64,000 bases of DNA, taken from assembly GCA_964016885.1 (NCBI GenBank), contig OZ024741.1, positions 177,630,001 through 177,694,000 on the forward strand, in the 5' to 3' direction. Under the pieces are notes generated by a model. That model worked only from the letters and a program-made list of their open reading frames with translations. It was not told the origin of the DNA and searched no databases. Every line of letters begins with the position of its first letter. Position 1 is the first letter of the stretch. Source of the stretch: Eledone cirrhosa (Eukaryota). Shown in pieces: positions 44,956-48,181 of the stretch. The translations under genes were made by a program, and so were the position numbers.

Positions 44956-45470
44956 TTGAAAAAAAATGAAAACGAAATTTCATTTCTCACTCTTAGTACG
45001 GCACTTACTTAAATGTAAGTATGTGTGTATACGTACATACATATATGTATACAGACGTACAGTAGCATGCACACATATACACACACACATATATATATAT
45101 ATATATATATATATATATATATATATATATATATATATATATATATATATATATATATATATATATATATATATATATATACATACATATATACATACAT
45201 ATATATACAGGTACACATACATATATGCACGTATCAGTTTAGCAGACGCTTATTATAACGCCGCTTTGTTCGTTTGTAAACAAACTGAACAGCCTGAATT
45301 TTTATGCCGTACGGTGTTAAGGCAACCACGTCACCTTTTTGTTCAACACTGACACAGGAACGATGTACTAGTTTCAAGCTTGTTAGCTATCATCAGCACC
45401 GTATACCCATCTGCCAGATAGTTGAACGTTCGAAAGTATATACTTTCCTTACGAAAATTAACGGCTGAGA
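44956..45470 (-). mobile_element. Single copy of the 474-nt retrozyme-like family
   Basis: Aligns to the units of 18362-19660. HHR at 45359-45403; internal TA tract expanded. Confidence 0.85.
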
Positions 45471-48181
45471 GGGGGCGGGTTGTCGATAAATAAATCAGAA
45501 TAGACTTAGAAATAAAAATAGAATTAAAAATAAAAATAAAAATAAAAATAATGTTAAAATTAAAATTAAAGTTAATAATAATAAAAAAAAAATATAAAGA
45601 TAATAATAGAATAACGTAAGTGGCATAAAGTGTGTAATCTTATGTATACTAACAAGGTGTAATAGTGAAGACATAGATATGGTACAGTGGCCAAATGATT
45701 ATGAGAGCTAGAATGAAGAGTCATCAAAAACCAATGATAACATTAGTGTTGGCAAACAAAAGAACCCAAACAAAAAACTAAGTAATGGAATATATCTGCT
45801 AATGGGTACGATTTGTACTACTAGAACATTTGGGCTTATAATAAAAGTAAGAATTAGAAATGGCATGGGGGCAAGAAGAGAATATCTCAGACTTTCTATT
45901 CAGTAGGGTACGCTAGAAAAAATAATAGAGTGTGTCTCAAGTATACAGAGATTACAAAACTTACTATGTGCAGAATGGTGGTTAGATCGTGCTACTAAAC
46001 TCCAGTTAAGGCTATATGGTATATAAGCTCCCTTAAGATCCCAGATATAATGCGCTAGAGAGGTAGAATTCTTAAACCTAACATGTTTGAAGTTAGAGAT
46101 ATGAGAGTTAAACCTAGTCTTAAAAGTGTTTGAAGTAGATCCTATATACGTTCTTTTAGAGGAATTAGTTATAACCTCGCAAGCATAGACGATGTTCTTA
46201 GAAAGGCAGTTACCGTTTAGAGGGCAGTTAGCACTCACTCTACAATTGCCCTTCCGGGTGTTATTGGTTGGCTCGAGTGGTGATGTATTGCATGTAGGAC
46301 CTCTATTAGATAAGGACTGTTCTGGTGGTAAAGCATTGTCCGATGCATACAGACTAGTAGTATGTAGAGAGGAGAATCCATCCCTAATTTTCCTATTATT
46401 AGTGCTAGCTAAATGAGAACTAATATTAGGGGTGGTAGAGAATGAGAGTTTAATAACATTTTTATTAAAAATACCATGGTATTTGTGAGAAGGGGGGACA
46501 TTTTTCTCCAAGATAGTGAAGAAAGACCTAGGGATATGAGTTGATACATCCTGATTATATGGCGGGTTGAAATAAGTATTCAATCGCCTTCTATTTTCAT
46601 TTTTATTCTTATCGACCCTACCTCTATCAAATGTCCCACCGTCGAGACTAGGGTTACTATCGGGAATAGTTGAAGCCACATTCATAGAATCAGCCATAAT
46701 TTCGTTATGCCTATTATAGTTTCTACCTCTAGTAGATCCGCTGTTGTCCAGAATCCCTACAAGAGGATAAAGGCCAATGATAGGATCAGTAGGAGCAACA
46801 TTACTAGAATAAGATCCAGCCAAACCAACACCAATGCGTGAGCGCACAGGGGGCTCGACTTGTCTCTTAGAGATATTATATTTGTTATTACGAGTCCGGT
46901 GGGATAACTTATGGGTGGGTTCAAATACTGCTATATAAGTTCTACGGTTACTATGTTTGCTACTCCCATTCATGGCCATGCTATGTGATATAATGTTATT
47001 ATTATTAAGAGCAAGCGGAGACTTTCTAAAGTTACTATTATTATAATTTATTTTACTAGAGTGACCTGAATTTGCTAGGGCGTTATTGTAGTACTCCGCA
47101 TGTTCATTAAAAAGTTCCTATGTCCTTAGCTCACTCATCCACACATGTCTGTCTACTAACCTTGTAATTATATGTATTTATATATTTTATGCCAATTTTA
47201 AAATATATTACATTATGATATAGATCCTTATTACTTACCGTTTATTATATATAACATTATGATATTTAAACTTTATATATCATGTAAGATGTCTGGATTT
47301 TTTAATATTTTAATATTGTAATATGTAACATCATGATATTTAGACTTTACATATCATGTTAGATGTATGTATATTTTTTTCTGTAACATCATATTTTTTC
47401 TGTAACATCATAATTTTACCCTGTACCATTATAGTTTTTTTGAGTATTATATTATATGATTTATATTTCCTCATTTATTATGTAACCCAGTATGAATCAT
47501 TTTATACATATTGTTTATGGTAATTGTTAATATAATGTTAACATTTTATCATTGAATTTCATTATGGCATCTATATTGTTTCTGTAAATTAACCGGGATT
47601 ATCTATTCTACATTATTATATTGTATTGAATTATAAAATTTTGTTGTTTATTATTTGTTATAAGTGTTTCTTGTAATTATATCATATTATTGCCTCATGT
47701 ATATTGGGTAGATGTATTAGTATTATGTTCACTATTACCATGCTTATTTTTAATATTCAAACTTCTAATAGGGCTTAATTTCTGTGTAATAGAACATAGA
47801 TATGTGTATTGTTGTATGTGTGTGTGTGTGTGTGTGTGTGTGCGCACATATTTACATGTATATATTGTGCCTTTTGATTTTTAATTTGGAATTTTAATGT
47901 TGGTATAAATATATTATCATTATAATGTATTATATTGTGTTATATATAATTCCTGCTCTATATAACCAAATCTGTTTAGATTTAGGTTGGTGGCTTTGGA
48001 CTATATTTATAATATGGTTGTTAATGTTATCTACATCCTTAGTTATTATAATTTTATTATTTTTATCTTTATTTTCATTTTTATTATCGTATATCTTTGC
48101 AAGACATTAGTATATGTACACTCCATATTCTTCAGAGTTTCTGGCTTGTATCTGCCGATATTACCTCTTGTTGTTTTGATT

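Follow-up and report, generated by a model that had tools for sequence, protein, structure and literature searches.

The 64-kb window, by which we mean the whole stretch of 64,000 nucleotides analysed here, contains two composite insertions with a common architecture: (TA)n, a retrozyme on the minus strand, a PLE fragment also on the minus strand, an inversion, a PLE arm on the plus strand and again (TA)n. In the second composite, a (TA)n target (44921–44955) borders the outer end of a retrozyme arm of 1.1 units (44956–45469, minus strand), whose 3′ end is of the long class (unit positions 313–318) and whose 5′ junction falls at unit position 371. The arm adjoins an inverted arm of the Hydra-like element PLE-A (45470–47129, minus strand), which holds the end of the RT, GIY-YIG and the start of the 3′ UTR, lacks roughly 1.7 kb at the 3′ terminus of the element, and is an inverted duplicate (97.2%) of 49789–51434 in this YRDD element. 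The main PLE-A arm (47125–53214, plus strand) comprises a partial pLTR (47125–48369), a broken ORF (48443–51005) and a pLTR (51973–53214) with its own hammerhead motif near 53030, and finishes in a long-class end; its last 100 nt (53115–53214) form the tail, the family's short ends mapping to 53114, and (TA)n closes the composite (53215–53263). The first composite consists of a retrozyme array of 2.8 units (18357–19661, minus strand; 3′ end of the short class at 259, 5′ junction at 379), an inverted arm of the Neptune-like, YVDD element PLE-B that is cut within GIY-YIG (19661–22443, minus strand), and a second PLE-B arm with GIY-YIG and 3′ UTR (22443–23372, plus strand), which has a short-class end followed by (TA)n. 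The second composite therefore pairs a long retrozyme end with a long PLE end, and the first a short with a short.

The preliminary description of this DNA reported that one retrozyme is joined to two PLE lineages, YRDD and YVDD, at nearly one position. The coordinates bear this out: positions 371 (45469) and 379 (19661) are 8 nt apart, and the breaks lie 22 and 14 nt, respectively, 5′ in RNA sense of a palindromic 16-nt hairpin (45432–45447 in the second composite). The PLE fragment was also described as inverted, which holds for each fragment relative to its own main body; relative to the retrozyme its sense is the same. Junction overlap is 1 nt at 19661 and 2–3 imperfect nt at 45469. Each window junction has one match in the genome with up to one mismatch allowed, which rules out a propagated chimeric family, and segmental duplication of one composite is ruled out by differences in subfamily, partner and end class alike. 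An assembly error at one or both junctions might be suspected in such a repeat-dense, palindromic region, the more so as each junction is single in the assembly. We regard it as very improbable, because the same architecture occurs at an unrelated locus (L074), the parts carry private changes of their own, unlike copies of nearby parts, and the joins are sharp. Among the contigs of four sequencing runs compared with 45215–45800, no listed piece crossed the junction; two runs were empty, and the adjacent repeat was skipped.

Self-BLAST of the window, with microsatellites masked, showed the retrozyme arm to span some 1.1 units of a 474-nt repeat; the same repeat forms the 2.8-unit array of the first composite, and the two are 95–96% identical in the non-TA part. 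Unit positions are given in RNA sense, starting from the predicted ribozyme cleavage site. Motif search and folding place a type I hammerhead motif with its stems on the minus strand of each unit; in the second composite it occupies 45361–45401, with a 5-bp stem I, a 4-bp stem II, a minimal palindromic stem III and predicted cleavage between 45366 and 45365. One unit carries a change in the hammerhead core, at 19566, and the ribozyme sequence is identical in 422 of 476 matched copies. An Rfam scan of the window returned no match at the gathering score. Exact matches in the genome number 10,448 for the ribozyme core and 14,873 for a second retrozyme motif. The unit is non-coding, since all overlapping reading frames derive from the TA repeat. 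Head-to-tail arrays reach several kilobases, and adjacent units are identical in young arrays, as rolling-circle copying predicts. The hammerhead motif together with the short, non-coding tandem unit supports classifying the family as a putative non-LTR retrozyme. In one array (L002–L004 and L009, at G000:C4:202.02 Mb), unit variants alternate with a period of about 950, which suggests a dimeric template.

These properties are those of the metazoan non-LTR retrozymes described by Cervera and de la Pena (2020; PMC7229834): a non-coding tandem unit of a few hundred nucleotides, units that each bear a type I hammerhead, copy numbers in the thousands and the identity within arrays expected of rolling-circle copying. 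In that paper PLEs are proposed as the likely mobiliser on the basis of a shared ribozyme type, tandem layout and co-existence, and the words 'inverted' and 'target site' have no occurrence in its main text. A recent preprint describes retrozymes as non-autonomous PLE derivatives, arguing from co-occurrence and pLTR homology and calling the mechanism unresolved (Li, Clavereau and Pollet, 2026; bioRxiv 10.64898/2026.07.22.740005). The present retrozyme differs from that account in being without homology to seven PLE stretches of the window: compared with these UTR and element sequences, it gave no match better than E 0.1. Derivation from a PLE pLTR has no support from homology to these seven stretches.

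Insertion anatomy was examined in two sets of loci, mostly from contigs C1 and C2 and biased to young copies. The first set comprised 100 ten-kilobase loci (88 in positional order on C1 and 12 best matches; one duplicate was removed). For the second set we took 80 loci in which a young fixed end served as anchor, namely 60 of the 810 matches to long ends and 20 of the 208 to short ends. Retrozyme arms have 3′ ends at unit position 259 (short) or about 318 (long), 59 nt apart. In the first set, 114 of 151 classed ends lie exactly at 318 or 259, with 44 further arm pieces ending elsewhere; a fixed end followed by a TA-rich flank was found in 153 of 197 arm pieces, with the flank itself belonging to the criteria of the class. 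Positions 259 and 318 rule out that insertions end where the ribozyme is predicted to cleave. A second arm was joined head-to-head in 62 of the 77 readable first arms of the anchored set, and the inner, 5′ junctions fall anywhere in the unit. The two arms obey a nearly strict rule: 91 of 92 resolved pairs combine a long with a short end (first set 36/37, with 25 unresolved; second set 55/55, with 7 unresolved). The anatomy differs from that in Cervera and de la Pena (2020), as far as their account goes, in that most insertions here are head-to-head pairs, dispersed and having two fixed ends, neither of them at the cleavage site.

The PLEs of this genome follow a comparable pattern. Where a second end of PLE-A pairs is visible, it lies at 53112–53114 in nine of ten cases, and none has two long ends; ten facing pairs of PLE-B and the related family B2, read by eye, are all long with short. 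The distance between the two ends, the tail, measures 59 nt in the retrozyme, 42–60 nt in B and B2, 64, 80 and about 80–90 nt (family D) in three more families, and 100 nt in PLE-A. In published PLEs, inverted insertions have the tail on a single end (Craig et al., 2021; PMC8557442), and it has been mapped to the interval that separates two internal RT start sites (Frangieh et al., 2024; PMC11167929). The retrozyme presents two fixed 3′ ends, inverted insertions of which a single end has the tail, and a (TA)n target. Because it bears a PLE tail, we infer from this signature that the family is very likely copied by a Penelope-type (PLE) enzyme. Two other repeats of the window have a similar layout. 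Element X (9278–10971 and 44739–44920), which is abundant in the loci and has no hammerhead motif by pattern search, is inserted in TA as head-to-head pairs of which just one arm has a tail, 80 nt long, and is twice fused to retrozyme long arms (L068, L090). A 312-nt tandem repeat at 27305–28373 (2.9 copies, 99%) has an inverted arm and TA flanks and is laid out like the retrozyme insertions.

Sequence variants indicate how the two arms of a pair are related. A 6-nt indel divides young copies about evenly, with arrays of identical units existing for both forms, and its state agrees between arms in 36 of 36 pairs (Fisher P 2e-10). In 38 of 42 pairs an arm lies nearer to its own partner than to the median stranger, and the TA centres match in length in 21 of 37, compared with 10.3 by shuffling. 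Arm lengths are uncorrelated, and since sequence missing from one arm is present in the other, either way round, neither arm is a copy of its sister. Inner junctions overlap by at least 2 nt in 32 of 47 cases against 18% by chance, although BLAST overlap may inflate this figure. The simplest reading would be that a dimer reads one RNA two times, with a separate start for each DNA strand; agreement between arms would also be expected from two RNA molecules if a single variant were expressed per cell or period. In such a scheme, a dimer of the PLE RT/GIY-YIG protein would nick both strands of (TA)n, two cDNAs would be started on one RNA, likely circular, each at its own site, and microhomology would join their ends. 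L1 twin priming and template-switch chimeras likewise yield 5′ inversions, microhomology joins and one-off chimeras. In twin priming the internal site to which the second primer anneals varies, whereas both retrozyme starts are fixed.

We tentatively extend this scheme to all PLE-type insertions here, at somewhat less than even confidence: a dimer may use two tandem RT sites on a single RNA, so that the tail would be the spacing between the sites, each site would serve one strand, the inversion would be the cDNA join, and a circular retrozyme would need to supply nothing beyond the two-start signal. Rare mixed insertions that keep the long/short rule would then name the helper, Hydra-like family D, possibly one of several lineages. 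Published PLEs share with the present system the two starts flanking the tail, the tail at one end of inverted insertions, nicking and extension of both strands, a predicted protein dimer and AT-rich or (TA)n targets (Craig et al., 2021; Frangieh et al., 2024; PMC3846280). The differences are that the template here is a non-coding repeat, that published tails measure 30–40 nt compared with 42–100 nt across the present families, and that no strand difference in start site was seen in vitro in the account of Frangieh et al. (2024), while pairing here is nearly strict and the arms share a template variant; the strict pairing thus goes beyond parts 1–2 of 4 of that paper. Comparable, too, are Chlamys non-autonomous elements such as MRC1, likewise non-coding, often head-to-tail and PLE-mobilised, which as described by Craig et al. 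(2021) are without canonical hammerheads and have a 3′ end resembling that of the autonomous partner.

The proximity of the two window breaks had led to the proposal that a hotspot of structural switching lies immediately 5′ of the 16-nt hairpin and would steer RT jumps to PLE RNAs. We mapped 260 5′ breakpoints and removed 43 inside the TA-rich centre (155–222), leaving 217 from 179 other loci. Removed before the counts were also locus L083 (a duplicate of L181), short TA-like matches, three edge or N loci, and first-set arms with a TA run behind them or without a fixed 3′ end. Sorted into 10 bins, the breakpoints are evenly spread (chi-square P 0.64, n = 217). The interval 365–385 holds 9 of 217 breakpoints (4.1%, 95% interval 1.9–7.7%) against 11.2 expected (5.2% flat), and among arms longer than 480 nt it holds 5 of 100 against 5.2 expected. 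Three further fusions to a PLE ORF were found in the 179 loci, at positions 237 (L074), 112 (L277) and 222 (L077, in which the cut lies on the 3′ side of the retrozyme), none of them near the site. Two random breakpoints of the 217 fall within 10 nt of each other in 5.8% of draws, so the closeness of the window breaks, 8 nt, is barely above chance. A uniform histogram was the outcome that the preliminary description had itself named as contrary to its proposal. The data largely refute a hotspot at the hairpin, which we consider most unlikely. The densest stretch of breakpoints lies elsewhere, at 111–131 (28 of 217; P 0.002 against a flat null), at the foot of a long TA-rich hairpin, and may result from arm-length decay or alignment edges.

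The partners themselves were classified by motif. PLE-A carries RWR, DKT, a CNCRVSANC linker, one cysteine inside GIY-YIG, a hammerhead motif and a (TA)n target, and thereby fits the Hydra clade definition of Craig et al. (2021), namely an RWK-like motif, DKT, a CxCX5C linker, no CCHH, GIY-YIG at the C-terminus, a hammerhead and a (TA)n target; its Pfam GIY-YIG match is weak and below the cut-off. PLE-B has a CX2-5CxxC linker, two cysteines inside GIY-YIG and a C-terminal EN, motifs that fit Neptune and Nematis alike. The motif evidence supports the view that the two window partners represent divergent lineages, apparently Hydra-like and Neptune-like. The ORF of PLE-B contains a long asparagine-rich insert (21897–22523, minus strand), resembling inserts of rotifer Penelope elements described in PMC3846280. 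A second Neptune-like family, B2, lies at 32119–35648, about 70% alike to PLE-B, with its short end on the left, its long end on the right and internal inversions. Hammerhead-like motifs in the 3′ UTRs of B and B2 (23130–23180 and 35386–35440) have an extra base after the core, as in the retrozyme, which is absent from the PLE-A motif. Another Hydra-like PLE, at 580–2740, matches family D at its 3′ end and has an unusually long hammerhead-like motif in its UTR.

Several readings were weighed for how the retrozyme arms came to be joined to these elements. The one that we somewhat favour takes 44956–45469 to be an arm from a family of hammerhead-motif retrozymes, which enters TA repeats as two-ended head-to-head pairs and is likely copied by a Penelope-type enzyme; the arm was likely joined to the Hydra-type element when separate insertions met in one TA repeat, with no hotspot involved. 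The free end of one retrozyme arm would have been joined to the neighbouring element rather than to its sister arm, and the intervening DNA lost. The end classes argue for this reading: the window composites are short with short and long with long, against long with short in nearly all normal pairs, a combination with a chance of about 1e-4 under the normal route, and two separate insertions are favoured accordingly. Elements inserted in TA repeats have outward-facing 3′ ends, and such a join between them yields the same-sense order of PLE and retrozyme without a template switch. The unique junctions, the flat breakpoint distribution, the fusions to LINE ends and the partner counts given below are in keeping with it as well. 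Several observations speak against it. The screen of 14 arms described below, which gave no tail-to-tail fusion to a PLE ORF, weighs on that side, as do the rule-keeping mixed composites from other loci. Four cases in which a neighbour clipped the short end of a retrozyme removed 18–37 nt, while the meeting of two insertions would need deletions of 0.7–1.7 kb or larger. Two PLE-ORF fusions in one 64-kb window would be expected in about 0.05 such windows per genome if fusions were independent, by rough arithmetic from the genome match counts and 3 fusions in 179 loci, so that such a coincidence is unlikely under independence. Private changes do not separate the partners in age (12/1113 in the retrozyme and 22/2945 in PLE-B of the first composite, P 0.34; 2/378 and 38/3369 in PLE-A of the second, P 0.43), which fits a simultaneous origin; a test based on duplicates suggests that PLE-B is the younger of PLE-B and its retrozyme array (P 0.012), in a direction opposite to the trend for PLE-A.

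A simultaneous origin would be provided by template switching in one reaction, in which an RT copying retrozyme RNA jumped to PLE-A or PLE-B RNA at a random point, while synthesis of the other PLE arm took place on the opposite strand; Hydra-like and Neptune-like RTs would then both be serving the retrozyme, again with no hotspot. Besides the compatible ages, it would account for same-sense joins far from the natural PLE end in three composites of identical architecture (both in the window and L074), for the mirror case L077 and the head-to-head case L277, and for the involvement of the 5′ junction of one arm in all five PLE-ORF fusions. A head-to-head pair at L104:3564–8227, in which a B2 arm with a long end meets a B arm with a short end, shows two families about 71% alike combined with the long/short rule kept. 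Against it, both window composites break that rule, normal insertions use one template for both arms, the same-sense order is forced by geometry as well, and the window junctions have only the minimal overlaps given above. Also, PMC3846280 reports an absence of cross-mobilisation between PLE types in a rotifer. We therefore prefer the meeting of two separate insertions, by a modest degree of belief, and treat a template switch as a distinctly less probable but live alternative.

A third possibility has nothing to do with retrotransposition: two neighbouring insertions, each complete, could have been fused long afterwards when a deletion spanned the TA repeat between them. Long TA repeats and palindromes are fragile, neighbours separated by TA are common (e.g. 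L207, L230), and the window has random end classes and unique junctions. Such deletions should yield tail-to-tail fusions more often than any other class, yet among 14 arms examined for atypical 3′ ends there was no such fusion with a PLE ORF, a result that speaks against a plain later deletion; moreover, a whole sister arm would have to be lost in three of three cases. We judge this origin improbable.

Composites elsewhere bear on which enzyme copies the retrozyme. Of five mixed composites outside the window with both ends classed, four are long with short (L074, L077, L068, L090) and L069 is long with long; the L069 junction lies inside the TA-like centre, and without it the count is 4/4. 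L277 stands outside this count because the far end of its PLE arm is interrupted by a LINE. The partners of L074 and L077 belong to Hydra-like family D, and those of L068 and L090 to family X, which appears here as short arms only. These rule-keeping composites may indicate that mixing within a single event exists, and they weakly point to family D as helper; as four of five has P 0.19 under random pairing by our own arithmetic, family D is only a lead. The tail length of the retrozyme and the extra base after its ribozyme core rather resemble lineage B. Including the window, PLE-ORF partners comprise four Hydra-like elements and one Neptune-like element, which agrees with how common the two are around the loci (39 and 18 of 159 loci). 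Retrozyme fusions to the 3′ ends of RTE-like LINEs also occur (L065, L087), so that fusion alone does not identify the enzyme. The proposal that one non-autonomous RNA is used by divergent PLE RTs is thus upheld in part: the partners are divergent and the tail makes PLE mobilisation very likely, but use by both lineages does not follow from window composites that break the long/short rule, with LINE fusions occurring too. Several PLE lineages possibly copy the retrozyme RNA.

Retrozymes and a proposed link to PLEs were already known; what the strongly supported insertion anatomy, with its two ends and paired arms, adds is genomic evidence for PLE mobilisation. The enzyme that moves retrozymes and the mechanism of inverted, tailed PLE insertion are described as open questions (Cervera and de la Pena, 2020; Craig et al., 2021; Frangieh et al., 2024; Li, Clavereau and Pollet, 2026). 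We found no report of tail signatures, paired arms or PLE fusions in retrozymes in a search that covered mainly literature outside subscription journals; parts 1–3 of 5 of the 2026 preprint contain no junction, tail or pair analysis, and related observations could stand in the supplements of that preprint or of Frangieh et al. (2024; Fig. S2, on genomic ends). The anatomy ties the retrozyme to PLE chemistry otherwise than by co-occurrence. The family supplies natural products by the hundred, young and short, which obey a rule that can be counted (two starts and a single template, with each arm using one start), and the 474-nt template with its mapped starts could be used in the existing in vitro PLE assay; the hotspot originally flagged makes no contribution to this.

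Further repeats accompany the retrozyme in the window and at the loci. Element Y, about 570 nt long, lies in TA at 17608–18175 and 31115–31684 and is inside or fused to the retrozyme at L092, L159 and L174. The window also holds, at 3082–5319, what we take from motifs to be Helitron-like Rep/PIF1 helicase fragments. At L244 (G000:C1:151643634–151651633), a 98-nt piece with a hammerhead-like core of its own adjoins a first arm of 61 nt and possibly belongs to another retrozyme or pLTR family.
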